From NCBI GenBank assembly GCA_023130975.1, contig JAGMAD010000005.1:22933-86932 (forward strand): DNA of 64,000 nucleotides. The letters are read 5' to 3'. This DNA is from Candidatus Parcubacteria bacterium (GTDB taxonomy: Bacteria; Patescibacteriota; Minisyncoccia; Minisyncoccales; JAGMDC01). Below, one piece after another: positions 24,659 to 58,180 of the stretch. Position 1 is the stretch's first letter. Every line of letters starts with the position of its first letter. Under the pieces are notes generated by a model. The model was not told the origin of the DNA. It was given only the letters and a program-made list of their open reading frames with translations, and did no database searches. Position numbers and translations under genes: made by a program.

Positions 24659-27190
24659 TTATCCATATTTAGGATAACAACATTTTTTATATTTTTTGCC
24701 GCTACCGCAGGGGCAAGGATCGTTCCGGCCTGGTTTGTTTTTACGAGCCCCGTCTTCATAACGAGGCCCGACCTCGTTATGAGATGGCACAGAAGTAGAT
24801 GGCTGGCTGAATGCCGGTGCTGAAACTGTTGCTTTTTCTTCTGGTTTAACCAAACTAACCCGGAAAAGAGTATCAACAATATTGGTCTCAATCATATTAA
24901 GAAGCTGGCGAAACATTTTATGGCCTTCATTTTTGTATTCTACTAATGGATCCTGCTGTCCATAAGCGCGTAAGCGAACAGAATCTCTTAAATACTCCAT
25001 ATTTTCCAAATGGTCCATCCAAAGGAAATCCAAACTCCGCAAACTAATAATTTTTTCCACTTTTCTCATATTCTCTTCGCCTATTTCTTTTTCTTTTTTC
25101 TCATAATCTTGCTCTGTCTTCCCCTGTTTCTTAACCATTTCTATAATTTTGGCTTTTCGCTCCTCGCTTTTCGCTTCTAAGATTTCTCTTCGCTTTTTAT
25201 AGATTACTTCCCTGTGTTTGTTTAAAACATCATCATAGTCCAATAAATGTTTTCTCAAATCAAAATTCATTCCTTCAATTTTCTCCTGCGCTGATTCAAT
25301 CACTCCTGAAACCATTTTAGCTTCAATTGCCTGGTCCTCTGGAATTTTCAGCATTTCCATCATTTTCTGGATTCTTTCACCGCCGAAAATTCTTAATAAA
25401 TCGTCTGCCAAAGAAACAAAGAATTGAGAAGAACCAGGATCGCCCTGCCTGCCAGACCGGCCCCGCAATTGATTGTCAATTCTTCTGGCTTCATGCCTTT
25501 CTGTACCGATAACGGAAAGCCCTTTGCTTTTAACAACTTTTTCTGCTTCTTCTTTATTAGGAGGATTGCCGCCTAAAATTATATCCACTCCCCTGCCAGC
25601 CATATTAGTAGCAATAGTCACTGCCTTATATCTGCCTGCCTGAGCAATAATTTCTCCTTCTTTCTGGTGATGCTTGGCATTTAAAATCTGATGAGGAACT
25701 CCTTCTCGATCTAACAGCTTTCCTAAATATTCATTTTTCTCAATAGAAGTAGTGCCAACCAAAACCGGCTGTCCTTTTTGATGCCTTTCTTTAATCTCTG
25801 CCACCACTGCCTTAAATTTTCCGCTTTCTGTTTTGTAAATTCTATCTGGCAATACCTCGCGAATCATTGGCTTGTTTGTCGGTATTATCACCACCTCTAA
25901 ACCATAAACCTTGTCAAATTCTTCTGCTGAAGTGGCAGCTGTTCCAGTCATCCCAGCTAATTTATCGTAAAGCCGAAAGTAATTCTGAAAAGTAATTGAA
26001 GCTAATGTTTTTGATTCTGGCTGAACTGCTACCCCTTCTTTTGCCTCAATGGCTTGATGAAGACCCCCGGAATAGCGCCTGCCAGGCAAAAGCCGTCCAG
26101 TGAAATCATCAACAATAATAACTTGACCATCCTTTACCACATAGTCCCTATCTTTCTTGAAAAGAGCTTGGGCGCGGAGAGATTGCTCTAAGTGATGTAA
26201 ATATTTTATGCCTTTTTCCTGATAAATATTATCCATACCTAAGATTTTCTCTATTTTTTCAATGCCCGGCTCAGTTAAGGTAACAGCTTTCATCTTTTCA
26301 TCAATTTCATAATCAGATTCCTTTTTTAATTGAGGAATAATTTTGGCAAACTCTCCATACGCTTTCGTTGCTTCCATATCCGGAGCAGAAATAATCAAAG
26401 GGGTTCTGGCCTCGTCAATTAAAATTGAGTCAACTTCATCAACAATCGCAAAATTAAATTCACGCTGAGCTTTATCTTTTAAGTCATAAACCATATTATC
26501 CCTTAAATAATCAAAACCGAATTCATTGTTAGTGCCATAAGTAATATTCGCTTGGTATGCCTCTTTTCTTGAACAAGGCCTTAAATAACTTTCAATAACT
26601 TTAAATCCGCCCAAAGTGTCTCTTTCTTCATCTCTTTCACTATTAGATTCTTGATTCTTGATTCTTGATTCTTGATTTTTTTCTTGAAATTCTGGATCAT
26701 AAATACAGGCTGTATCATGCACTAGACAACCAACTGACAAGCCGAGCAAGTGATAAATCTGTCCCATCCAAACTGTGTCTCTTTTAGCTAAATAATCATT
26801 AACTGTTACTACATGAACACCCTTATCTGTTAAAGCATTTAAATAAATTGGCATAGTAGATGCCAATGTTTTTCCTTCACCGGTTTTCATTTCTCCAATT
26901 CTTCCTTGGTGCAATATAATACCGCCGATTAATTGAACATCAAAATGCCTTTGGTTTAAAGTCCTTTTTGCTGCTTCTCTTGTTAAAGCAAATGCTTTTG
27001 GTAATATATCATCAAGCGTCTTACCCTTTTTTAATTCTTCTTTGAGTTTTTCTGATTCTAAACGAAGCTTTTCATCAGAAAAACCCTCGAACTCTTGTTC
27101 GAGGTTATTTATCTGCTCAACGATTGGCTGAATTTTCTTTAAATACTTCTCGTTAGCATCGCCAAAAAGTTTAGACAAAACCTTCATCAT
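24659..27190 (-). CDS. secA: Preprotein translocase ATPase SecA
   Basis: 843 aa with [44 protein letters not shown] and the C-terminal zinc motif [13 protein letters not shown]. Confidence 0.95.
26646..26680. repeat. Heptanucleotide microsatellite (GATTCTT)4 plus a partial unit, inside secA
   Basis: Four perfect tandem units span 26646-26673. Translated on the minus strand they give [12 protein letters not shown]. Confidence 0.85.
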
Positions 27191-27296: not shown

Positions 27297-27312
27297 TTGG
27301 AGAAGAAATTTA

Positions 27313-27339
27313 CTTCTTTTTCTTCTTTTTCTTCTTTTT
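27313..27339. repeat. (CTTCTTTTT)3 perfect 9-nt tandem repeat
   Basis: Three exact copies. On the minus strand the repeat sits inside the ATG-GCA-(AAG/AAA)10-TAA micro-ORF at 27310-27348. Confidence 0.85.
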
Positions 27340-27519
27340 CTTTGCCATTTTATTTAATTATTTCAGAAAGCACATATTTTATGCTTTCAGAAATAACTAT
27401 CTTACATTAAGGCAAATATTCGACTTCTTATTTGCCCGTCCGCCAAAATTTTTTAAAAATTAGGCGGGCAAAAATTTTAAAGAAAATTCATTACTTTATT
27501 TTTTCATTTTAAAAAAGTT

Positions 27520-27544: not shown

Positions 27545-27620
27545 AAATTTTCAATTATCAATTTTCAATTTTCATTAAATTTTCAATTCTTTAATTTTCA
27601 ATAATTAGAAATTAGAAATT
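27545..27620. repeat. Degenerate TTTTCAA-rich tract downstream of murB
   Basis: ATTTTCAATTATCAATTTTCAATTTTCATTAAATTTTCAATTCTTTAATTTTCAAT. This is the reverse complement of the TTGAAAA heptamer repeated inside murB. Confidence 0.5.
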
Positions 27621-27621
27621 T

Positions 27622-28581
27622 CTATTGTAGATATTTTATCTCTTCTTTCAGTTTAATTCCGAATTTTTCTTTTACTTTTCCTTTTGCTAAATTTATTAAT
27701 TTCAAAACATCTTTTGCCTTGGCATCACCTAAATTGACAATGAAATTAGCATGCTTTTCAGAAATCTGGGCTTTGCCAGCCTTCTTTCCTTTTAGTCCGC
27801 ATTTCTCAATCAGCCAACCAGCAGGATGTTTCTTGGGGTTTTGGAATATTGAGCCAGCTGAAGGAAAATTTAAGGGTTGATTGTCTTTTCGCCATTTTAG
27901 ATTCTCTCTTACTCTTTTTTTGATTTCTTCTTTATCTCCTTTTTTTAATTCAATTTCTGCTGAAAGAATTATCAAGTTCTTGTTGTGTTTAAAAATACTA
28001 TCCCTGTATTTAAACTTACAATCTTTTTTCTTCAAAATTCTGGTTTGGAATTTGGAGTTTGGAATTTGGGATTTGTTTGGGATTTGGGATTTGGGATTTG
28101 GGATTTCCAAAACCGTTACGGTTTTGGTTATATCTTTCATTGACTGTTCAAAAGCGCTAGCATTCCCTCTAATAGCACCACCAACTGTTATTCCCGGAAT
28201 TCCTACTGCCCATTCCATACCAATTAATCCATTTTTTGTCGCTTCTAAAACTAACAAAGATAGAGGTGCCCCTGCTCCAACATTAATTTTTGTAATTTGA
28301 GATTTGGGATTTGATTGAAAATTGAAAATTGAAAATTGAAAATTTATAACTAGTCCCTGGTATCCCTCATCTGCCACAAGAACATTGCTTCCACCACCTA
28401 AAACAAAAAAAGACAGCTTTAATTCATTTGCTGTCTTAATAGCTTTGATTAAATCATCTTTATTTTTTGCTGTATAAAAATATTTTGCCGGGCCGCCAAT
28501 CTTAAAGGTTGTATAATTTTTCAATAAAATGTTTTTCTTAAACTTTTTAAAAATTTTAGATTTTGATTTGTCATTTTGCAT
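27622..28581 (-). CDS. murB: UDP-N-acetylenolpyruvoylglucosamine reductase MurB
   Basis: NYTTFKIGGPAKYF, FVLGGGSNVLV, GIPGTVGGAIRGNA and GSIFQNP. Two heptamer-repeat tracts interrupt it in frame. Confidence 0.88.
   Translation of the reverse strand: MQNDKSKSKIFKKFKKNILLKNYTTFKIGGPAKYFYTAKNKDDLIKAIKTANELKLSFFVLGGGSNVLVADEGYQGLVINFQFSIFNFQSNPKSQITKINVGAGAPLSLLVLEATKNGLIGMEWAVGIPGITVGGAIRGNASAFEQSMKDITKTVTVLEIPNPKSQIPNKSQIPNSKFQTRILKKKDCKFKYRDSIFKHNKNLIILSAEIELKKGDKEEIKKRVRENLKWRKDNQPLNFPSAGSIFQNPKKHPAGWLIEKCGLKGKKAGKAQISEKHANFIVNLGDAKAKDVLKLINLAKGKVKEKFGIKLKEEIKYLQ
28042..28108. repeat. Heptanucleotide array (GATTTGG-type, about 9 units, imperfect) inside murB
   Basis: GGTTTGG AATTTGG AGTTTGG AATTTGG GATTTGT TTGG GATTTGG GATTTGG GATTTGG GATTTCC. 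It encodes EIPNPKSQIPNKSQIPNSKFQT. Confidence 0.85.
28295..28343. repeat. Heptanucleotide array (ATTTGNG x3, then TGAAAAT x4) inside murB
   Basis: ATTTGAG ATTTGGG ATTTGAT TGAAAAT TGAAAAT TGAAAAT TGAAAAT. It encodes NFQFSIFNFQSNPKSQI. Confidence 0.85.
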
Positions 28582-31902: not shown

Positions 31903-33783
31903 TCAATTAAGCAAAGAATATGTTGGGACAAGTTCTTTTAGAATGCTTTTTATTTCTTTCTGGTCAAATTTTTTGATTGCTTTTTCTAGCCTTCTTAAAC
32001 TTTCGTTTATTTTCTCTTTATCTGCTTCTGAAAGTTTTGCCATAAAAATTTTTTCATTTTGAGTAGCAATAGTTCCTTCTTCAGCGGTTAAAATTTCTTC
32101 AAAAAGTTTTTCTCCTGGTCTAATACCTGTAAAAACAATGGGAATATCTTTATCCGGTTCATGACCGGAAAGACGAATTAATTCTTTTGCTAAGTCCACA
32201 ATCTTTATTGGCTTCCCCATATCTAAAACAAATACCTCTCCACCTCTTCCCATAGCTCCGGCTTGCATTACTAAAAGACAGGCCTCAGAAGTAACCATAA
32301 AATATCTTTTCATCTCGGAGTGGGTAATTTCTATCGGACCTCCTCTTTTTATTTGTTCTCTAAAAATAGGTATTACGCTTCCCCGGCTGTTTAAAACATT
32401 ACCAAATCTCACAGAAATAAATTTTGTAGAATTTTCTTGATTTAGAGACTGACAAAGCATCTCTCCCACTCTTTTTGTTGCACCCATTATTGAACTTGGG
32501 TTCACTGATTTGTCAGTAGAAATAAAAATAAATTTTTCTACATTATGCTTTAGGGCAACATCAGCAATAGTTTTTGTCCCAAAAATATTATTTTTCACTG
32601 CCTCATCCGGTTGACTCTCCATTAAGGGAACGTGCTTATAAGCAGCAGCGTGAAATATTATCTCTGGCTTAAATTTTTCAAAGATCTGTATTATTTTTTG
32701 TTCATCTCTGATGTCAGCGACAATAAAGGAAAAATTTAGTGTTGGAAATTTGTTTTTAATTTCTTCTGAAATATTAAAAATCCCTGTTTCATCTTGATCT
32801 AAGAGCAAAAGAAGATATGGTTCAAATTTAGCTATTTGACGACAAAGTTCAGAACCAATAGAACCAGCAGCACCAGTAATTAAAACACGTCTTCCTTGAA
32901 TAAAACTTGTAATAGCTGCTTTATTCAAAGATACTTGTTTTCTTCCTAATAAATCCTCCATTTGAACATTTCTTAAATCTCTAATAGAAACTTTTCCATT
33001 AATTATTTCTGTAATTGAAGGAATAATCTTAATATTTTTAAGACCTGACATTCTTCCAACTTCTACTGCTTTCTTTATAATACTTGAATCTGCTGAAGGT
33101 AAAGCGATAATTATTCCTTTAATATCTTGCTTTTTCACTATATCCGGAATATCTTTAACCTTTCCTAAAACACGGACACCGTGAATTAAATTTCCCTGTT
33201 TTAATTCATTATCATCAATAAAACCAACGGGCTCATAAGGAGCGTCAAAAGAACTCTGAATGCTTCTTAAAATTTGTTCACCGGCATCACCTGCCCCGAC
33301 AATTAAAGTTTTCTCTTTGCCTCTTGTTTCTTTTTTTTGAAAAAGATAAAAATAGATTCTTTTAGAAAAACGAGCAGCTCCGCAGAATATAAAAATTAAA
33401 AAATAACTAATAAAAAGAACAGAACGGGGAAAACCGCTAAAAACCGTGTAATCCTTTAAAACAAAATAAAAAGCTGTTAAGAGTAAAAAACTCAAGATTG
33501 TAGCCTTGAATAAAGAAATTAACTCTTCCAAACTCACATAAGACCAACTGAAATAATAAAGCTTAAAAAAGTAAAAAATAGGAATAGTAATTATTAAAGC
33601 TAAAATGATAATTCCTCCAATGTTTAAAAAATAACAGTCAGGTATTTGTCCCTCAAACCTAATCAAAAAAGCCAACCAAACTGAAAAAGAAATCAGTATA
33701 ATATCACTAACTAAAAAGAAAATCATTCGCTTTTTCGGCGTCCGCTCCATTAATTTTTTTAGCAAGAATTTAAAATCAGGCAT
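31903..33783 (-). CDS. Membrane-bound NDP-sugar 4,6-dehydratase (CapD/PglF/WbpM family polysaccharide biosynthesis protein)
   Basis: 626 aa with four N-terminal TM segments, two Rossmann motifs (IVGAGDAGEQ and ITGAAGSIGSEL) and a Polysacc_synt_2-like core. Confidence 0.88.
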   Translation of the reverse strand: MPDFKFLLKKLMERTPKKRMIFFLVSDIILISFSVWLAFLIRFEGQIPDCYFLNIGGIIILALIITIPIFYFFKLYYFSWSYVSLEELISLFKATILSFLLLTAFYFVLKDYTVFSGFPRSVLFISYFLIFIFCGAARFSKRIYFYLFQKKETRGKEKTLIVGAGDAGEQILRSIQSSFDAPYEPVGFIDDNELKQGNLIHGVRVLGKVKDIPDIVKKQDIKGIIIALPSADSSIIKKAVEVGRMSGLKNIKIIPSITEIINGKVSIRDLRNVQMEDLLGRKQVSLNKAAITSFIQGRRVLITGAAGSIGSELCRQIAKFEPYLLLLLDQDETGIFNISEEIKNKFPTLNFSFIVADIRDEQKIIQIFEKFKPEIIFHAAAYKHVPLMESQPDEAVKNNIFGTKTIADVALKHNVEKFIFISTDKSVNPSSIMGATKRVGEMLCQSLNQENSTKFISVRFGNVLNSRGSVIPIFREQIKRGGPIEITHSEMKRYFMVTSEACLLVMQAGAMGRGGEVFVLDMGKPIKIVDLAKELIRLSGHEPDKDIPIVFTGIRPGEKLFEEILTAEEGTIATQNEKIFMAKLSEADKEKINESLRRLEKAIKKFDQKEIKSILKELVPTYSLLN

Positions 33784-34903
33784 TTAATATTCGTTTTAAG
33801 GTCTTTACAATATAATTTATTTCTTTTTCTGTTAAATTATTATAGAAAGGCAAAGCAATGGTTCTCTGGCTAATACTTTCAGTAATTGCAAAATCACCGG
33901 GTTTATAGCCAAACTTTTTTCTATAAAATGGCTGTAAATGAATTGACTGAAAATAATCGCTGCATTGAATTCCCTTTCTTGCCATTTTTTCAATAATTTT
34001 ATCTCTGTCTTTTTTTGAGTATTTTTTTTGAAGCTGAACCACATAAACAAACCAACTTATTTTAACATTTGAAGTAATATATGGAATTTTAATTTCAGAA
34101 AAATTTTTTAATTTCTTATTATACATTTTAGCCACCTTATCCCGTTTTTCAAGAATTTTGTTTAGTCGTTCCATTTGAGTAACCCCTATTGTTGCACAAA
34201 TTTCCGGCATTCTATAATTGTAACCTAATCGAATATGCTCTAACCATTTTCCGTCTTTATTTCTACGTCCCTGATTAGCCATACTGCGACATAAATCTGC
34301 AATTTTTTTATTATTCGTCAAAACTACACCTCCTTCACCAGCAGTAGTGATTTGTTTATTTGGATAAAAAGCAAAAACCCCTGCATCCCCAAAAGAACCA
34401 CACTTTTTACCTTTGTACTCCGAACCCAATGCTTCGGCTGAATCCTCAATTAAAAAAAGTTTATGTTTCTTAGCAATTTTTTCTAATTGAGCCCAATTTG
34501 CTGGATGACCAAAAGCATCTATTGCTAAAATTGCTTTAGCTCTTTTAGTAATTTTTTTTTCAATTTTTTCTGGATCTATATTTAAGGTCAGGGGGTCAAT
34601 ATCTACAAAAACCGGCTTTGCTCTTTCAAATAAAATACAATTTGCAGAAGCAATAAAAGAAAAAGGAGTAGTGATTACTTCGTCTCCTTTTTTGATTCCC
34701 AGTGCCCGAATTATTAAATGCAAAGCACTGGTTCCGCTATTTACTCCAACAGCATATTTCACTCCTGTATATTTAGCAATTTTCTTCTCAAATTCCTCTA
34801 ATTTCGGTCCTAAAGATAAAACAGGTGTTTTTAGAACCTCTAAAACCGCCTTTCTTTCTAAATTTGTAATATCCGGCTGTGCCAAAGGAATTTTCCAGTT
34901 CAT
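33776..34903 (-). CDS. DegT-family PLP-dependent sugar aminotransferase
   Basis: VNSGTSALHLII, IEDSAEALG, and FYPNKQITTAGEGG with the PLP lysine present. Confidence 0.88.
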   Translation of the reverse strand: MNWKIPLAQPDITNLERKAVLEVLKTPVLSLGPKLEEFEKKIAKYTGVKYAVGVNSGTSALHLIIRALGIKKGDEVITTPFSFIASANCILFERAKPVFVDIDPLTLNIDPEKIEKKITKRAKAILAIDAFGHPANWAQLEKIAKKHKLFLIEDSAEALGSEYKGKKCGSFGDAGVFAFYPNKQITTAGEGGVVLTNNKKIADLCRSMANQGRRNKDGKWLEHIRLGYNYRMPEICATIGVTQMERLNKILEKRDKVAKMYNKKLKNFSEIKIPYITSNVKISWFVYVVQLQKKYSKKDRDKIIEKMARKGIQCSDYFQSIHLQPFYRKKFGYKPGDFAITESISQRTIALPFYNNLTEKEINYIVKTLKRILNA

Positions 34904-52016: not shown

Positions 52017-52823
52017 TTAAACTCTCCATTTTCTCAAAGCTCCAGAATACCTCTCCCAGGTTCCGCAGTCTGTCCATCTACCTTGAAATTTCAAAGCGTT
52101 TAATTTTTTTTCTTGGACTAATTTAGGAAAGATATCTGTTTCAATCATAGTGAATTTAGGGACAGTATAACCCGCCTTGACGCGATAGCGAGGCAGGTAA
52201 TTAAAAATTTCCGGAGACAACAAATAAAGCCCTGAATTAATATAGTTCGTAGGCGGATTCCCTGCCCATCCAAATTTTTTCAAAATTTGGGAGGGTGAAG
52301 GTTTTTCCAAAAACTCTTTAACTTTTTCTTTCTCGCAAACTACTACTCCATAATCCTGAGGATGAGGAACCTTTACTAAAGCAATAGTTGCTGGCTCTTG
52401 ATTGCTTTGATGAAAACTTGCCATTTTATTCAAATCTATTTCTTTTAATTCATCACCATTAGTCAAAAAAAATGAACTACTTGAAAGCCAGTCCTTTAAA
52501 AGAAAAACTCCGCCGAAAGTGCCTAATGGTTTTTCTTCCTCAAAAATTTTAATTTTATTTTTAGGATAATATCTTCTTTTCCACCAATCAAAGTCCTCTC
52601 TAAATTCTTTATTGATTAAAACAGCAATTTCCTTGACTCCTTGTTCTCTAAATAAATCAACTAAATAATTGATAATTGGTTTTTTCCTAATAGGAAGTAA
52701 GGGTTTTGGGATTTCCTTTGTTACTGGATATAACCGGGTTCCTTTTCCTCCAGCTAATATTATTGCTTTATAATTTGATAAATTATTTTTTACCATAATA
52801 GACACTGATTTATATTCTACCAC
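52017..52823 (-). CDS. Sugar-phosphate nucleotidyltransferase
   Basis: AIILAGGKGTRLYPVTKEIPKPLLPI signature. The start is ambiguous (52823 or the internal Met at 52796). Confidence 0.8.
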   Translation of the reverse strand: MVEYKSVSIMVKNNLSNYKAIILAGGKGTRLYPVTKEIPKPLLPIRKKPIINYLVDLFREQGVKEIAVLINKEFREDFDWWKRRYYPKNKIKIFEEEKPLGTFGGVFLLKDWLSSSSFFLTNGDELKEIDLNKMASFHQSNQEPATIALVKVPHPQDYGVVVCEKEKVKEFLEKPSPSQILKKFGWAGNPPTNYINSGLYLLSPEIFNYLPRYRVKAGYTVPKFTMIETDIFPKLVQEKKLNALKFQGRWTDCGTWERYSGALRKWRV

Positions 52824-53062
52824 TTTTCAATGGTTCTTACAGCTTTTCTTTTTATTTTTTGATATGCTCTTATAGCTTTGTTCTCTGCTTGAGGCGAAAC
52901 CAATCTTAAAATCTCCTTACCCCAGATCCTATATCTGCCGCCAACTTTATTAGCTTTAAGAATGCCATTTTTTAAATGGCGTTTAATAGTGCTTTCGCTT
53001 ATCTTTAAAAAACTCCGAGCTTCTTCGGTTGTATATATTTCATTGGGATTTATTTCTTTCAT
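52817..53062 (-). CDS. Excisionase/MerR-type helix-turn-helix DNA-binding protein
   Basis: YTTEEARSFLKISESTIKRHLKNGILKANKVGGRYRI shows the HTH_17 pattern. Confidence 0.65.
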   Translation of the reverse strand: MKEINPNEIYTTEEARSFLKISESTIKRHLKNGILKANKVGGRYRIWGKEILRLVSPQAENKAIRAYQKIKRKAVRTIEKW

Positions 53063-53068
53063 TGTCTT

Positions 53069-53097
53069 ATTATATTAAAAGCAAAAGACCCTGTCAA
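53069..53097 (-). promoter_or_regulatory. Canonical promoter TTGACA-N17-TATAAT, 6 nt from the ATG (leaderless)
   Basis: The minus strand reads TTGACAgggtcttttgcttttaaTATAATaagacaATG. Confidence 0.6.
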
Positions 53098-53194
53098 TAG
53101 GGGTCAATAAGGTTCAAATGAATTTGCTCATCTTAGAAATAAGATTTTTCTTAAAATCTTTCAAATTTAAAAATTTTTGCAAGCACTCATTCTA

Positions 53195-53203
53195 TGCTAT
53201 AAT
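53195..53203 (+). promoter_or_regulatory. Extended -10 TGCTATAAT, 6 nt from the yraN ATG (leaderless)
   Basis: The plus strand reads tctaTGCTATAATttcaatATG. Confidence 0.5.
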
Positions 53204-53209
53204 TTCAAT

Positions 53210-53623
53210 ATGATAATCTCTAAGAAACAAACAGGAGAAATTGGAGAAAGAATTGCCGAGAATTTTTTAAAGAAAAAAGGATATAAAATTTTGGACAGGA
53301 ATTTTTTCACTCGTTTGGCTTTGGGCCCTAAAACCGGAGAAATTGATATTATTGCTGAGAAAGAAGAAACAATCTCATTCGTAGAAGTTAAAACAATAGA
53401 AATCTCCCCTCGCGGCTTCGCCGCAAGGGGAGATTTTATCCCACCAGAGCAAAAAGTTAATTTCCAAAAACAAAGAAAAATAATAAAAACTGCTCAAATC
53501 TGGCTTTCCAAAAACAAAATGCCCCTGAATAAAAAATGGCAGATTGATGTAATCTCAATAAAAATAGATTTAGATTTGAAAAAAGCTGAAATTAAACACT
53601 TTCAAAACGCTTTTGGAGAATAA
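53210..53623 (+). CDS. yraN: YraN-family (UPF0102) endonuclease-like protein
   Basis: GEIGERIAENFLKKKGYKILDRNF...GEIDIIAEKEETISFVEVKT. I chose the ATG at 53210 because the ORF-track start at 53177 is TTG. Confidence 0.75.
   Translation: MIISKKQTGEIGERIAENFLKKKGYKILDRNFFTRLALGPKTGEIDIIAEKEETISFVEVKTIEISPRGFAARGDFIPPEQKVNFQKQRKIIKTAQIWLSKNKMPLNKKWQIDVISIKIDLDLKKAEIKHFQNAFGE
53401..53435. repeat. 35-nt GC-rich palindrome in frame inside yraN
   Basis: AATCTCCCCTCGCGGC-ttc-GCCGCAAGGGGAGATT, with 15 of 16 bp paired. It encodes ISPRGFAARGDF. Confidence 0.65.
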
Positions 53624-53627
53624 CTTA

Positions 53628-53646
53628 TTAGCTTAGTTAGCTTGCT
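53628..53646. repeat. 19-bp direct repeat copy 1 (TTAGCTTAGTTAGCTTGCT) at the 3' end of the epimerase gene
   Basis: Identical to 54612-54630. It overlaps the epimerase stop codon region. Confidence 0.8.
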
Positions 53647-54587
53647 AACTTATTCCTGAACCACTCCACTGTCTCTTTCAATCCCCTATCTAAATTATAT
53701 TTCGGCTGACAGCCAAGCTCTTTTTTTGCTTTTTTAAAATCTAAACAGCTTCTTTTCTGCTCACCAGGTTTTTCAGGAATATGAATCTCTTTACAATTTA
53801 AATCAGCCAACTTTCTAATTTTTCTAAAAATAGTATTAATACTGGTTTCATTTGCTGTCCCAATATTAAAAACCCCGATTTTGTTTTTCTTCAAAGCCAA
53901 TATATTCGCTTCAACCACATCATTAATATAAACAAAATCCCGGGTTTGTTTTCCATCACCGTTTATTGTTGTTTCTTTACTATTTAGCATTTTATCGCAG
54001 AAAATGGCAATTACTCCTGCCTCTCCTTTTGAATTTTGTCTGGGTCCATAAACATTTGACAAACGCAAAGATACATAAGACAGACCAAAAACTTTATAAT
54101 AATAATTTAAGTATTTATCAAAAACCAATTTTTCAATCCCATATGGCGAAACAGGCATTTCAGGATATGTTTCTGGAGTAGGAATAATATCAGCGTCGCC
54201 ATAAATGGCACCGCCAGTAGAAGCAAAGATTATTTTAGAAGCGAATCTATGCGAACGATTAGGCGAAAGAACGCGAATAAAATTCTGAATTATATTTAAA
54301 GAACCGAGAATATTAATTTTGGCATCTTCAATTGGATCCTCAACTGATTTTCTTAAATCAATTTGAGCCGCTAAATGAAAAACTGTTTCTGGTTTTTCTT
54401 TTTTAAAAACATCGGAAATTTTAGGACTCCTGATGTCCAATTTATAAAATTTGGCTTTAGGATTCAAGTTTTTTTTAGTTCCGGTAGATAAATTATCAAT
54501 CACCACCACTTTATGATTTTCTTTGATTAATCTATCTACTAAATGACTTCCGATAAAACCAGCTCCCCCAGTGACTAATATCTTCAT
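53637..54587 (-). CDS. NAD-dependent NDP-sugar epimerase (GalE-like extended SDR)
   Basis: MKILVTGGAGFIGSHLVDRL, and SPYGIEK (the YxxxK motif). Confidence 0.88.
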   Translation of the reverse strand: MKILVTGGAGFIGSHLVDRLIKENHKVVVIDNLSTGTKKNLNPKAKFYKLDIRSPKISDVFKKEKPETVFHLAAQIDLRKSVEDPIEDAKINILGSLNIIQNFIRVLSPNRSHRFASKIIFASTGGAIYGDADIIPTPETYPEMPVSPYGIEKLVFDKYLNYYYKVFGLSYVSLRLSNVYGPRQNSKGEAGVIAIFCDKMLNSKETTINGDGKQTRDFVYINDVVEANILALKKNKIGVFNIGTANETSINTIFRKIRKLADLNCKEIHIPEKPGEQKRSCLDFKKAKKELGCQPKYNLDRGLKETVEWFRNKLAS

Positions 54588-54589
54588 AC

Positions 54590-54629
54590 TTAGTTAGCTT
54601 AGTTAGCTTAGTTAGCTTAGTTAGCTTGC
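54590..54629. repeat. (TTAGTTAGC)4 perfect 9-nt tandem repeat plus TTGC, in a divergent promoter region
   Basis: The units are 54590-98, 54599-607, 54608-16 and 54617-25. It starts 3 nt from the epimerase ATG and is followed by TTATAAT and the plus-strand Wzy_C gene. Confidence 0.9.
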
Positions 54630-54662
54630 TTATAATCTTTATTTTTTATATCATAAAACAAT

Positions 54663-57035
54663 ATGGAAAACAATATCGTTGAAAATAAAATAAAATGGGT
54701 TTATCTTCTGGGCTTTTTTTTAATTTTGGCCTTACCGCTTTTGAATCTACCGCCCTGGTTCTCGCCGCCTGACTGGGGGAAAACCATTGTTTTTAGGATT
54801 ATTCTATCTCTAATGATTTTTGTTTTTCTATGGCAAGTCCTTTTCCAGAAATTAAATGATAATTTATCATTGATCATTAAAAATATATTAAATAAGCAAA
54901 GTAAGGTTTTTTTAAGTTTCTGGCTCTTGATTGCTTTCTTAGGAGTTTACTTCTTGGCTACCCTATTTTCTCAAGACCCATATTTCAGCTTTTGGGGATC
55001 TCCTTACCGTGCCGGTGGATTTCTTAATTTCGCTTTCTGTATAATTTTTGCTATTTTAGCTTTTTTAATTCTCCGAAAATCTGACTGGCAAAAAATCTGG
55101 GATTTTAGTATAATTATTGGAATTTTTGTCTCATTTATTGCTATCTTTCAGCAACTCGGTCTTTTTAGTAAGGTAGTTATTCCTTTTTCCGGTAGAGCGC
55201 CTTCTACTATCGGCGGACCAATATTTTTGGCAATTTATCTTTTGCTTTTATTTTTTCCTATCTTATTTTTTGGTATTAGAGAAAAAAATCTTGTTAAGAA
55301 GTTTTTTTATTTTTTTGCTCTTTTATTATTTTTTTATGTTATCTTAAATACTGGAAGCCGAGCCGCTTATTTTGGATTATTAATTGGAATCTTTTATTTT
55401 GTTCTTTTCTACCCTGTTAAATTCCACTTTGCGGCACCCAGCCTTTTACAGAAAGGCGGGGTATTTAACAGGGTGGACCCCCACACCAAAAAGCTTTTTT
55501 TAGTCAAAATCTTTTTTGGAATCCTTTTGGTTTTAGGAATTTTGGGAGTTTATTATTTGAATGCTGATTACCAAGTCCCTCAATCTTTTCAAGAAAACAA
55601 GATTTTTAAAACAGTCAATTCAAGATTATCTATCAGTTTAGCCATAAAAGATCCTCGTTTCTCCAGTTGGGAAATTGCTTTCAGGGCAATGAAAAAAAAA
55701 CCGATTTTGGGTTATGGGCCGGAAAATTTTTCAATTGGTTTTGATAAGCATTATGACCCTTCTTTGCCATACATTGATCCGGATTGGGGCAGTTGGTATG
55801 ACCGTGCCCATAATTTTATTTTTGATATTGGGGTTACTGTAGGAATTTTAGGTCTGATTATTTACCTTTCCCTTTTTGCAGTTTTATTCTCTGGATTACA
55901 AAAACTAAAAAAAATTAAACCAGAAAAAATAATAATATATCATGGAATTCAAGCTGCTTTCTTAGCTTATTTGGCAGCTAATTTCTTTAGTTTTGATACT
56001 TTTTCAACCTACTTAATATCGTTTTTAATAATTGCTTATAGTTTAACTTTAATAAATCAATCAGAAAAAAAGCAAAATGAAATCATTAAACCAAAAATTA
56101 GAAGTGTCCAAAAACTCACGATCGTGAAAATTTGGACACTTTTAAAAAAATATAAAAAAGCAATTATTGTTATTTTATTTTTATTCTTAATCTGGTTTAT
56201 CTGGGCTTGTAATATCAAACCTTTTTGGATTAACAAAGAAATCCGTTCTACTAAAACTCAATCTCAAATTGGGAATTATCAACAAGGCCTGAAACAATTA
56301 GAAAGCGTCTTGGATTCTCACACTTATTTAGACAGTTATTTAAGATTAAATTATGTTGAGCTTATTAGCCAAAACCTAGAAAAAACTCCGCCGGCTTTTC
56401 AGGGAATTTTAGTGGAAAAAGCAATCAATGCTTTAAAGGAAAATACTGAAATCAGACCTTATTATACCAGAAACTGGTTATTGCTGGGAAATTATACCAA
56501 TGTTTTGATTGAGAAAGGAAAAAAAAACCTAAGAGGAGAAGCATATTACTATTTTGAAAAAGCTCTTCAATTAAGCCCTAAGCACTTAGAAATTTTCATT
56601 GGTCTGGCAAAAACCGATTTATTAACCAATGATTATTTAGGAGCAAAAAATAATGCCCAAAAATGCATCAATTTAAATTCAAAAGTTGGAGAATGCTGGT
56701 GGTTAATGGCTATAACTAATATCTATTTGAATAACATTGAAGAAGCCCAGGGAAACATAGAAGCAGCAAGAAAAGCAATATATCCTGTTGGCTCAAAATC
56801 CTCTACTGCTCAACTTATAAATGCCTATAATTACATCAAAAACTATGAAGAAATAGTTAAAATTTATCAAACATTAATTTTGCAAGAACCAAACAATGCT
56901 CAATATCATTTCTCCTTAGCAGTTTATTATAAAGAACTGGGTAATAATGAAAAAGCAAAAAAAGAAGCTCTAAGGGCTTTAGAGCTAATGCCAGAAGCAA
57001 AGAAACAAATAGAAGAGTTTTTAAAAACTCTTTAA
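54663..57035 (+). CDS. O-antigen-ligase-like (Wzy_C domain) polytopic membrane protein fused to C-terminal TPR repeats
   Basis: NTGSRAAYFGLLIG and YDRAHNFIFDIGVTVGILGL show the Wzy_C pattern. The C-terminal ~250 aa has TPR-like repeats (YYFEKALQLSP, AVYYKELGNNEKAKKEALRALEL). Confidence 0.75.
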   Translation: MENNIVENKIKWVYLLGFFLILALPLLNLPPWFSPPDWGKTIVFRIILSLMIFVFLWQVLFQKLNDNLSLIIKNILNKQSKVFLSFWLLIAFLGVYFLATLFSQDPYFSFWGSPYRAGGFLNFAFCIIFAILAFLILRKSDWQKIWDFSIIIGIFVSFIAIFQQLGLFSKVVIPFSGRAPSTIGGPIFLAIYLLLLFFPILFFGIREKNLVKKFFYFFALLLFFYVILNTGSRAAYFGLLIGIFYFVLFYPVKFHFAAPSLLQKGGVFNRVDPHTKKLFLVKIFFGILLVLGILGVYYLNADYQVPQSFQENKIFKTVNSRLSISLAIKDPRFSSWEIAFRAMKKKPILGYGPENFSIGFDKHYDPSLPYIDPDWGSWYDRAHNFIFDIGVTVGILGLIIYLSLFAVLFSGLQKLKKIKPEKIIIYHGIQAAFLAYLAANFFSFDTFSTYLISFLIIAYSLTLINQSEKKQNEIIKPKIRSVQKLTIVKIWTLLKKYKKAIIVILFLFLIWFIWACNIKPFWINKEIRSTKTQSQIGNYQQGLKQLESVLDSHTYLDSYLRLNYVELISQNLEKTPPAFQGILVEKAINALKENTEIRPYYTRNWLLLGNYTNVLIEKGKKNLRGEAYYYFEKALQLSPKHLEIFIGLAKTDLLTNDYLGAKNNAQKCINLNSKVGECWWLMAITNIYLNNIEEAQGNIEAARKAIYPVGSKSSTAQLINAYNYIKNYEEIVKIYQTLILQEPNNAQYHFSLAVYYKELGNNEKAKKEALRALELMPEAKKQIEEFLKTL
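55411..55474. repeat. 64-nt nested palindrome in frame inside the Wzy_C gene
   Basis: The outer 12-bp inverted repeat is ACCCTGTTAAAT and ATTTAACAGGGT. The inner one is GCCTTTT/GAAAGGC. It is followed by CCCCCACACCAAA, which is identical to the recJ element terminus. Confidence 0.6.
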
Positions 57036-58180
57036 AGCTGGCTAATCTGCGACTGGATTAAAATAATTAGCTGATTTAGAAGTTCAATAATCATTTGTTG
57101 AACTTCTTTTATTTTTGCTTTAAGTTCCTGTTCGTTCATTTCGGAAATCGGTTTTTCTTCCTCTTCTTCCTCTTCTTCCTCTTCTTCGTCAATAGGTGGG
57201 TATTCACAAGAACCATCATCTCTTGTTGCTTCAGGATTGTAGTTTAAGGCATTAGAATCTATGCAACCTTCTATCACTAATTCTGGGAAATTAACTTCTA
57301 CGGTAATAGAATCTCCATCTGTTTCAGTATTATTGAGCCAATCAGCTGATTTTGTTTTAAGAATATAATCACCTTCTGTAATATCCTGCCATTGATATTC
57401 CCAGGTTCCATAATTGGAACTAGTTGAATCAACTTCATACCAAACATTATTGATGCCTATCTTTACCCAAGAAGGAGTTGAACCGCCTTGGTCACGAGCT
57501 ACGCCTTTGATAGTATAATTCTCAGTATCAATGATTGAATTATTTTCTGGTTCAGTAATAACTGTTTTTGGAGCAAGATTATCAATAACAAAATCGCGGA
57601 TTGTTTGAGAATAGGAATTAACAATGGCTTCGTCACTGGGACCATTGTTTTTTGATTCCATAAAGATGCCTAAGTCCCCTATATCAAAATCGCCATTGCT
57701 GTTTTCATCGTATAATATTGGTATTCTTAATTGGATAGAGCGATTAGCAGTGGCATGTTTCCATATCTCAACGCTTACAAAAATTCTTAAGCCCTCTAAG
57801 GACACTAGCTCTTCTAAATTATCTAAATACCAGTTATTATTTAAACCATTAAAAGTAAAAGTGCCTAATTCTTTATCTTTTTCTAAACCTTGAAAACCAG
57901 GAGTGTCATCATCTTTCCAAAGTTTAAATCTTTCAATATCATAAAAATCTTTAGCTGTCCCTATATTTTCCAAAGCAATGGCTAAAAGTTTATCTTCTCC
58001 ATTTCTTCCTGAAGGAATTGTCAAATCCATTACCAATTTATCAAACTCTTGAGGATAACAATAACTACTTGGCGCTTGATGATTGGTAAAATCACTGTTT
58101 ATTAATGCCTTAGCAGAACTGGTTCCGAAAAAAGAAAAAATAATAAAACTAACAATTAAAATTTTATAAGAATTTTTCAT
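57032..58180 (-). CDS. Secreted protein with beta-sandwich-like regions, a poly-Glu linker and a C-terminal PISEM coiled coil
   Basis: Signal peptide ILIVSFIIFSFFGTSSAKA. Cys-bracketed motif CIDSNALNYNPEATRDDGSCEY, then EEEEEEEEEEEKPISEMNEQELKAKIKEVQQ. Confidence 0.5.
   Translation of the reverse strand: MKNSYKILIVSFIIFSFFGTSSAKALINSDFTNHQAPSSYCYPQEFDKLVMDLTIPSGRNGEDKLLAIALENIGTAKDFYDIERFKLWKDDDTPGFQGLEKDKELGTFTFNGLNNNWYLDNLEELVSLEGLRIFVSVEIWKHATANRSIQLRIPILYDENSNGDFDIGDLGIFMESKNNGPSDEAIVNSYSQTIRDFVIDNLAPKTVITEPENNSIIDTENYTIKGVARDQGGSTPSWVKIGINNVWYEVDSTSSNYGTWEYQWQDITEGDYILKTKSADWLNNTETDGDSITVEVNFPELVIEGCIDSNALNYNPEATRDDGSCEYPPIDEEEEEEEEEEEKPISEMNEQELKAKIKEVQQMIIELLNQLIILIQSQISQL

Follow-up and report, generated by a model that had tools for sequence, protein, structure and literature searches.

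A nine-nucleotide tandem repeat and a 19-bp direct repeat at a Parcubacteria epimerase locus, with probable repeat-mediated gene loss in a sister lineage

The epimerase locus and its repeats

We analyzed a 64-kb stretch of DNA (contig JAGMAD010000005.1; hereafter the window) from a bacterium whose proteins carry the NCBI name Candidatus Parcubacteria bacterium, and within it a locus where a single epimerase gene lies between two copies of a 19-bp direct repeat, one of which is formed by the end of a tandem array of 9-nt units. An earlier annotation of this DNA, made without database searches and referred to here as the sequence-only reading, had drawn attention to the locus. The gene (53637-54587, minus strand) encodes a 316-residue NAD-dependent epimerase/dehydratase of the extended short-chain dehydrogenase/reductase (SDR) type (PF01370, E = 7e-60). 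It is transcribed divergently from a gene (54663-57035, plus strand) for a membrane protein that combines a Wzy_C domain, as in O-antigen ligases and polymerases, with C-terminal tetratricopeptide repeats (TPR), an arrangement that the sequence-only reading had described correctly. On the opposite side, yraN (UPF0102; 53210-53623, plus strand) converges with the epimerase, the stop codons of the two genes being separated by 13 nt, and forms the outer flank of a deletion described below. The label GalE-like, which the same reading had given to the epimerase, could not be kept. The protein falls under every NCBIfam equivalog cut-off, scoring 171.6 bits against the galE profile TIGR01179, where 262.3 are required, and an approximately equal 173.4 bits against the dTDP-glucose 4,6-dehydratase profile, where the cut-off is 365.1. 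Because both scores lie below their cut-offs and neither profile is favored, the protein is, on profile evidence, nameable only as an extended-SDR epimerase/dehydratase, and no substrate can be assigned to it.

The 19-mer TTAGCTTAGTTAGCTTGCT is found exactly at 53628-53646 and at 54612-54630, both places having been recognized by the sequence-only reading. Two more registers of it, each matching at 17/19 positions, lie inside the array, and four matches to the 19-mer were reached in none of 100 dinucleotide-preserving shuffles. The 3′ copy (53628-53646) overlaps the epimerase stop codon, taking in the last 2.3 codons of the gene (including those for the final A and S), the stop codon and 9 of the 13 nt that precede the stop of yraN, and it contains the palindrome AGTTAGC-AA-GCTAACT. 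The 5′ copy (54612-54630) consists of the last 1.5 array units followed by TTGCT, and these final 5 nt open the −35 box of the putative Wzy promoter. The exact copies are 984 bp apart, start to start, and not 966 bp as had been stated, the latter being the distance to the first imperfect register. The corresponding 984-bp unit (53647-54630; 965 bp plus one 19-mer) is the segment missing from a related lineage, L037.

The array itself (54590-54625) is a perfect tandem repeat of four units, TTAGTTAGC on the plus strand or GCTAACTAA when read in the direction of the epimerase. Tandem Repeats Finder (TRF) reports it as a period-9 array, 100% perfect, with 4.3 copies at 54589-54627. In the epimerase sense the spacer runs AGCAA(GCTAACTAA)x4 GT ATG. 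The array thus adjoins the epimerase start codon as had been claimed, but the gap is two bases (AC) rather than three. Stop triplets are present as TAG in two of the three plus-strand frames and as TAA in two of the three minus-strand frames, which bears out the claim of stops in several frames. The head of the array is identical in sequence to the epimerase's own 3′ end, and this identity is the source of the 19-bp repeat.

Outside the locus the units are not a recurrent feature. All five occurrences of TTAGTTAGC in the window are at this locus, the palindrome TTAGC-NN-GCTAA has 3 matches in the window where 3.0 are expected, and in related loci totaling 445 kb neither it nor the 9-mer motifs are enriched, the latter appearing at the chance rate once this locus is set aside. 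Two array units were sought in 185,579 species genomes and matched 26 times in scattered taxa, about the estimated chance number, the single match in Patescibacteria (L035) lying in an unrelated context. A clade-specific spacer pattern had no match in a scan of metagenomes, in a collection without short contigs of this type, from which even the source of L042, one of the related lineages treated below, is missing. Because genome-wide matches are near chance and the motifs are unenriched elsewhere, the array is, by these counts, neither a dispersed element nor a recurrent operator.

Ancestral gene order and loss of the epimerase in L037

Orthologs of the epimerase, 80-87% identical, stand divergently beside the Wzy-TPR gene in five related lineages (L039, L040, L041, L042 and L043), and more distant epimerases are also found beside Wzy in L052, L055 and L056; adjacency of the two genes was counted in 9 lineages other than the window. 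Since the orthologs of these relatives hold the same position beside Wzy, the divergent order of the Wzy_C-TPR and epimerase genes is, by this comparison, ancestral. The C-terminus of the window protein (...EWFRNKLAS before the stop) likewise corresponds to those of its orthologs (...EWF(K/E)NKLAY or ...NKLVS before the stop). L039 and L040, which have no 5′ array, still carry the homologous 3′ sequence AAGTTAGCTTACTAA, and in them the end of the epimerase gene forms a 9-bp hairpin, AATAAGTTAG-CTTA-CTAACTTAT. Because the C-termini and stop codons match even in lineages without a 5′ array, the 3′ copy of the 19-mer is, on the evidence of the orthologs, the gene's native end and not a target-site duplication.

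A locus without the gene is found in L037 (ENA ERZ4220366), which by the N-terminus of its Wzy protein is the nearest relative of the window (82% identity over 130 residues, against 56-70% for the others). Here, yraN is followed directly by the Wzy-TPR gene across a 54-nt spacer, and the epimerase is absent. Removal of 984 bp from the window leaves a 55-nt spacer, which aligns nearly base for base with that of L037. Read in the epimerase orientation, the L037 junction is ...GGACTATT AGCAAGCTGGTAAGCTAA TAAGTTATTCTCC..., in which AGCAAGCTGGTAAGCTAA is a single hybrid copy of the repeat. The sequence to the left of this copy agrees at 29/30 positions with the flank of the 5′ copy in L041, and the sequence to the right agrees at 29/30 with the flank of the 3′ copy in L041, the crossed comparisons giving 5/30 and 10/30. 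These matches support the interpretation of the L037 state as the product of a deletion between two direct repeats. Given that the intact order is present in nine other lineages and that L037 is the nearest to the window, parsimony favors a single deletion, in the L037 lineage. The same deletion between the 19-mers in the window population would be expected to leave the junction GAATAACTTATTAGCTTAGTTAGCTTGCTTATAATCTTT. L037 also encodes an epimerase of its own, of 303 residues, which was considered as a source of the window gene and rejected, as the two are 44% identical and an 80% DNA match between them spans just the conserved Rossmann N-terminus.

The sequence-only reading had predicted that recombination between the 19-mers would delete or insert the epimerase as a cassette. 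Deletion is borne out by the hybrid copy of L037 and its flanks; insertion is not, as the 3′ copy is native sequence and no recombinase is present. Presence or absence of the gene, which that reading had proposed as a check, does vary, the gene being absent in L037, but it is present in all assemblies from the window's own population.

Putative divergent promoters and the predicted epimerase leader

Upstream of the Wzy-TPR gene, the pattern TTGnTn-N17-TATCAT-N8-ATG is found in seven of eight lineages (the window, L037 and L039-L043). In the window it defines a putative promoter (54626-54654, plus strand) with a −35 box TTGCTT at 54626-54631, a 17-nt spacer, a −10 box TATCAT at 54649-54654 and a further 8 nt before the ATG. 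As only these 8 nt separate the −10 box from the start codon, the arrangement suggests that the Wzy mRNA is leaderless or nearly so. The TATAAT next to the array (54631-54636), which the sequence-only reading had taken for the promoter element, was rejected as the Wzy −10 box because it is specific to this genome; its relatives have TAATAG at that position. The array lies in its entirety upstream of the conserved −35 box, outside the −35/−10 spacer.

For the epimerase, a candidate promoter in the opposite direction (54645-54673, minus strand) has a −35 box TTGTTT at 54673-54668, a 17-nt spacer and a −10 box TATAAA at 54650-54645, and the pattern TTGTTT-N17-TATAAA is kept in all six epimerase-bearing lineages. 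The two putative promoters are closely interlocked: the epimerase −35 box is inside codons 2-4 of Wzy (AAC AAT on the plus strand), and the −10 boxes (54645-54654) overlap by 2 nt. In L037, where the epimerase has been lost, a synonymous AAC-to-AAT change has turned this −35 sequence into TTATTT.

If TTGTTT-N17-TATAAA is indeed the epimerase promoter, the array probably makes up about 36 of the approximately 51 nt of the epimerase 5′ leader and would hence be transcribed, the leader lengths implied across lineages being 23, 33, 51 and 61 nt. The leader does not fold better than shuffled sequence (z = +0.8), and a search of 52500-55500 against Rfam returned only a sub-threshold RybB match within the epimerase open reading frame (ORF), the leader itself matching no family. 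Because the array lies outside both putative promoter spacers, a change in unit number would alter the length of the leader and not the −35/−10 spacing of either gene, contrary to the earlier proposal that repeat number would change promoter spacing for both.

The manner in which genes begin elsewhere in the window is of the same character. A Shine-Dalgarno (SD)-like motif precedes only 6 of 49 ORFs, and in several ORFs, among them yraN at 53210 and an ORF at 33776-34903, the ATG follows 6-8 nt after a TATAAT-like box. These observations suggest that translation without SD sites is widespread in this Parcubacteria genome, in which many mRNAs may be leaderless.

Unit number within the population and across lineages

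The samples of one study provide independent assemblies of the same population (ENA SAMN18200500-503 and 505; Logan SRR13892597-599). Every contig that spans the array carries exactly four units (L001-L004 and L006-L009; seven distinct contigs from four ENA assemblies and one Logan run). Since these contigs are near-clonal consensus sequences, almost all of them matching the window at 100% identity across lengths of up to 14 kb, the constancy of the four units is a weak test of mutability. Every contig that reaches the 3′ junction continues from yraN into the epimerase, and look-ups of identical YraN proteins, made in search of a deletion allele in the same population, found none, all contigs entering the epimerase. 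The variation in unit number that the sequence-only reading had proposed to look for is thus seen between lineages, as described below, and not among the assemblies of this population.

Two cases in the population required separate consideration. In SRR13892597, the assembly breaks inside the array (L005/L010), which might be taken as a sign of heterogeneity. This was rejected, as the 39-nt periodic stretch begins and ends with the same 30-mer, which produces a loop and break in a de Bruijn graph with k = 31. The second, L004 (SAMN18200500 scaffold_95261), is 98.2% identical to the window and was considered as a diverged strain with four units; it too was rejected, since all 39 differences are confined to 53232-53464 in the 5′ half of yraN, a segment of 233 nt with about 17% divergence, and the next 1.9 kb are identical to the window. 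With the differences so confined, the end of this contig would be either a recombination breakpoint just past a hairpin in yraN or a chimeric contig end. The hairpin in question (53400-53436) is a GC-rich structure inside the AT-rich yraN ORF, with a 17-bp stem and a folding energy of −29.5 kcal/mol, and encodes ISPRGFAARGDF. L004 retains its outer stem and not its inner stem, and L037 has an unrelated AT-rich segment of equal length at the same position.

Across lineages, the array ranges over 0, about 2, 2.6, 3.4 (of a different unit) and 4.3 copies. No units are present in the spacers of L039 and L040, two degenerate units (GCTGACTAA ACTAACTAA) are found in L041, the spacer of L042 reads AGCAA(GCTAACCAA)x2.6 ATG, and the 85-nt spacer of L043 contains (TAAGTAAAT)x3.4 ... 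ATG. Among approximately 80 epimerase loci, L042 and L043 are the only ones besides the window with a perfect period-9 array upstream of the gene. Because each lineage repeats its unit without variation and the unit changes from lineage to lineage, the comparison indicates that slippage and turnover of units are continuing and that copy number changes on evolutionary timescales. The 3′ end of the gene also carries short tandem duplications containing TAA in two lineages, GCCATTAA GCCATTAA in L043 (JGI24422J19971_10059742) and TCATTAAA TCATTGA in L042, so that both ends of the epimerase gene seem slippage-prone.

Other repeats in the window

The window as a whole contains five perfect arrays with a period of 5-12 and 3.5 copies or more, whereas 50 Markov resamples gave none; the four other than the array studied here lie in coding sequence. 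Within murB (27622-28581, minus strand) there are arrays at 28314-28344 and 28044-28106, reading (AATTTTC)x4.4 and (AATCCCA)x~9 in the coding sense, the second of which produces a 16-residue insertion relative to the solved MurB structure 4pyt, and secA (24659-27190, minus strand) has an array at 26646-26677, (GATTCTT)x4.6 on the plus strand. These are perfect or near-perfect heptanucleotide tandem repeats inside coding sequence. Since a 7-nt unit does not preserve the reading frame, gain or loss of one would frameshift an essential gene, and by this reasoning the murB and secA heptamers fit the classical frameshift type of candidate better than the 9-nt array does. Further imperfect heptamer arrays, of the AATTTTC and AATTAGA types, occupy the spacer downstream of murB (27546-27620). 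Directly upstream of a GC-rich hairpin and the start of secA, a tiny ORF (approximately 27309-27345, minus strand) encodes MAKKKKKKKKKK followed by a stop and is made of the 9-nt repeat TTTTCTTCT x3.8 (plus strand). A perfect 9-nt coding array, (TTCTTCCTC)x3.7, is present at 57155-57187 in a 382-residue ORF (57032-58180, minus strand) that has a weak match to the bacterial immunoglobulin-like domain Big_7; this ORF adjoins the Wzy-TPR gene, and the two converge with an overlap of 4 nt at 57032-57035.

Origin of the repeats and alternative explanations

We consider it probable that the array is a slippage-born, dynamic repeat in the epimerase leader, and that a sister lineage lost the gene by way of the 19 bp which the array shares with the gene's native 3′ end. 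Under this explanation, replication slippage would have generated a short tandem repeat in the spacer between two divergent surface-glycan genes and would continue to resize it. The repeat would sit upstream of the Wzy −35 box and form most of an unstructured epimerase leader that lacks an SD site, although any role of this leader, or any effect on expression or on the glycan, is a prediction. The two 19-bp copies would provide the substrate for a rare deletion by short homology or slipped misalignment, and such an event in the L037 lineage would have taken out the epimerase, with a single hybrid copy remaining and yraN brought up against the Wzy promoter. What this explanation combines, namely the repeat anatomy, the differences between lineages and the L037 junction, was observed directly.

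Several points weigh against this explanation. The promoters were drawn from conservation alone, and a −10-like TAAGCT lies inside the array, 8 nt before the epimerase ATG, with equivalents in L041 and L043 and none in L042 or L039/L040, so a promoter may instead be located within the repeat itself. The direction of the insertion or deletion is taken from parsimony and a similarity matrix of 130 residues. The 5′ and 3′ copies are identical at 19/19 positions in the window and at 15/19 in L041, which implies a recent homogenization of the copies that slippage and deletion leave unaccounted for. Finally, three lineages have perfect arrays of different units at the same site, which may point to selection for a repeat there and not to neutral slippage.

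The alternative that survives best, though we think it unlikely, is the model of the sequence-only reading, a phase-variable contingency locus, in which frequent and reversible gain or loss of 9-nt units within the population would switch or tune the epimerase, Wzy-TPR or both. A perfect tandem repeat in the divergent spacer between surface-glycan genes is what such a locus would look like; the genome is repeat-prone, and the units remain perfect while their number and sequence differ by lineage, a sign that slippage was recently active. Repeats in a 5′ untranslated region (UTR) can also tune expression, as in Haemophilus influenzae hmw1A (PMC12721329, PMC8262952). Set against this, all array-spanning contigs of the population have four units, albeit in a weak test on near-clonal consensus sequences, and the contig break in SRR13892597 is explained by the k = 31 graph on the 39-nt periodic stretch. 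Moreover, the tract is short, with four units (36 nt) compared to at least 11 in natural hmw alleles (PMC12721329), and does not attain a hypermutable length; the array is outside the conserved Wzy −35/−10 spacer, and the leader has no hmw-like hairpin.

Somewhat less likely again is that the 9-nt repeat leader has been kept by selection, as an unstructured, non-SD translation leader whose length would act as a slippage-adjustable dial for the epimerase. This is suggested because perfect arrays with lineage-specific units recur at the same site, the observation already counted above against neutral slippage.

We regard it as improbable that the GCTAA-containing units are iterated binding sites for a protein that regulates the glycan cluster, such as a conserved 81-residue HTH_17 protein, with the 3′ copy as a second operator. 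The near-palindrome TTAGC-NN-GCTAA does appear in both the array head and the 3′ copy, in every relative the glycan cluster begins with an HTH_17 gene, and AACTAAGCTAAGTAG occurs in a different spacer of the L037 cluster. That palindrome, however, occurs in the window as often as expected, and the 9-mers are at the chance rate in the 445 kb of related loci. The units vary by lineage (GCTAACTAA, GCTAACCAA, GTAAATTAA) against an HTH_17 protein that is 79-83% conserved among L037, L039 and L040, and L039 and L040 lack any units.

Least probable of all is a mobile or horizontally acquired gene cassette, with the 19-bp repeats as a target-site duplication or attL/attR and L037 as the empty site, a model that these comparisons have largely refuted: a single promoterless ORF bracketed by direct repeats, a one-copy L037 locus resembling an empty site and an excisionase-family (HTH_17) DNA-binding protein encoded nearby would agree with it, but the 3′ copy encodes a conserved C-terminus and stop present in orthologs without a 5′ array (L039/L040), the gene occupies the same divergent site beside Wzy in 9 other lineages rather than differing sites, the locus has no integrase, transposase, attC-like site or terminal inverted repeat, the HTH_17 gene is kept in relatives with or without the epimerase, and insertion would demand loss of the gene and then its regain at the identical site.

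Comparison with described repeat systems

The best analogue for a possible action of the array on the epimerase is that of the hmw1A and hmw2A genes of H. influenzae, in which a transcribed (ATCTTTC)n repeat is present in the 5′ UTR and expression falls as its length rises (PMC12721329, PMC8262952). In both cases the unit exceeds 6 nt and lies between a promoter, here a putative one, and the start codon of a surface-related gene. The hmw tracts have at least 11 units in nature, commonly 13-28, with variation measured in populations, and their 5′ UTR forms a long hairpin with a G-rich arm that is cleaved by RNase III (PMC12721329, PMC8262952). In contrast, the array described here has four units, its leader is no more structured than shuffled sequence, and the consensus assemblies show no variation within the population.

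Closer to home, a hypervariable 9-mer locus, a large coding repeat (PTD repeats) attributed to slipped-strand mispairing, has been described in Gracilibacteria, which like Parcubacteria belong to the Candidate Phyla Radiation (CPR) (PMC6851277). The Gracilibacteria locus shares with ours the 9-nt unit and the attribution to slippage, yet its within-population variation was extreme and broke the assembly (PMC6851277), whereas the array examined here is a 36-nt intergenic tract that is invariant in the available assemblies. A literature search found no report of repeat-based phase variation in Patescibacteria.

Two further bacterial systems invite comparison with separate parts of the locus. In the classic case of the hifA/hifB genes of H. 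influenzae, the −10 and −35 boxes of overlapping divergent promoters are separated by a (TA)n tract, and the number of units sets promoter spacing. The repeat described here similarly occupies a spacer common to two divergent surface-structure genes, but unlike that of hifA/hifB it is outside the conserved −35/−10 spacers of both putative promoters. In E. coli, lacI deletions arise between short direct repeats by slipped misalignment or by RecA-independent short-homology recombination. Two identical repeats likewise flank the segment lost from L037, which keeps one copy and the outer flanks, and there is no essential difference other than that the event here is deduced from differences between lineages and was not seen to occur in a population. 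Integron cassettes are also single promoterless ORFs bounded by a short repeat; the present locus differs from them in having no attC, integrase or cassette array, and in that its repeat is part of the gene's native coding sequence. Short direct repeats are well known to give rise to deletions, and repeats in the intergenic DNA beside surface-structure genes are also familiar; this locus is another example of both kinds.

Implications for Parcubacteria

The locus provides a base-resolved natural example of a change in gene content within the surface-glycan clusters of uncultivated CPR bacteria, in which L037 has lost one gene between 19-bp repeats and retained the downstream promoter intact. 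It also presents a compact pair of back-to-back promoters, inferred from conservation, with overlapping −10 boxes and with one transcript seemingly leaderless. The bacteria concerned are thought to live attached to host cells. Should heterogeneity in unit number be found in reads, repeat-based phase variation would be extended to Patescibacteria, and the reading of the leader as a length dial, combined with repeat-mediated gene loss, would if true be the first contingency-type control of a surface glycan described in CPR/Patescibacteria. As the evidence stands, gene loss of this type is an ordinary route of change for surface-sugar clusters, and the locus represents ordinary repeat biology in an unusual organism.

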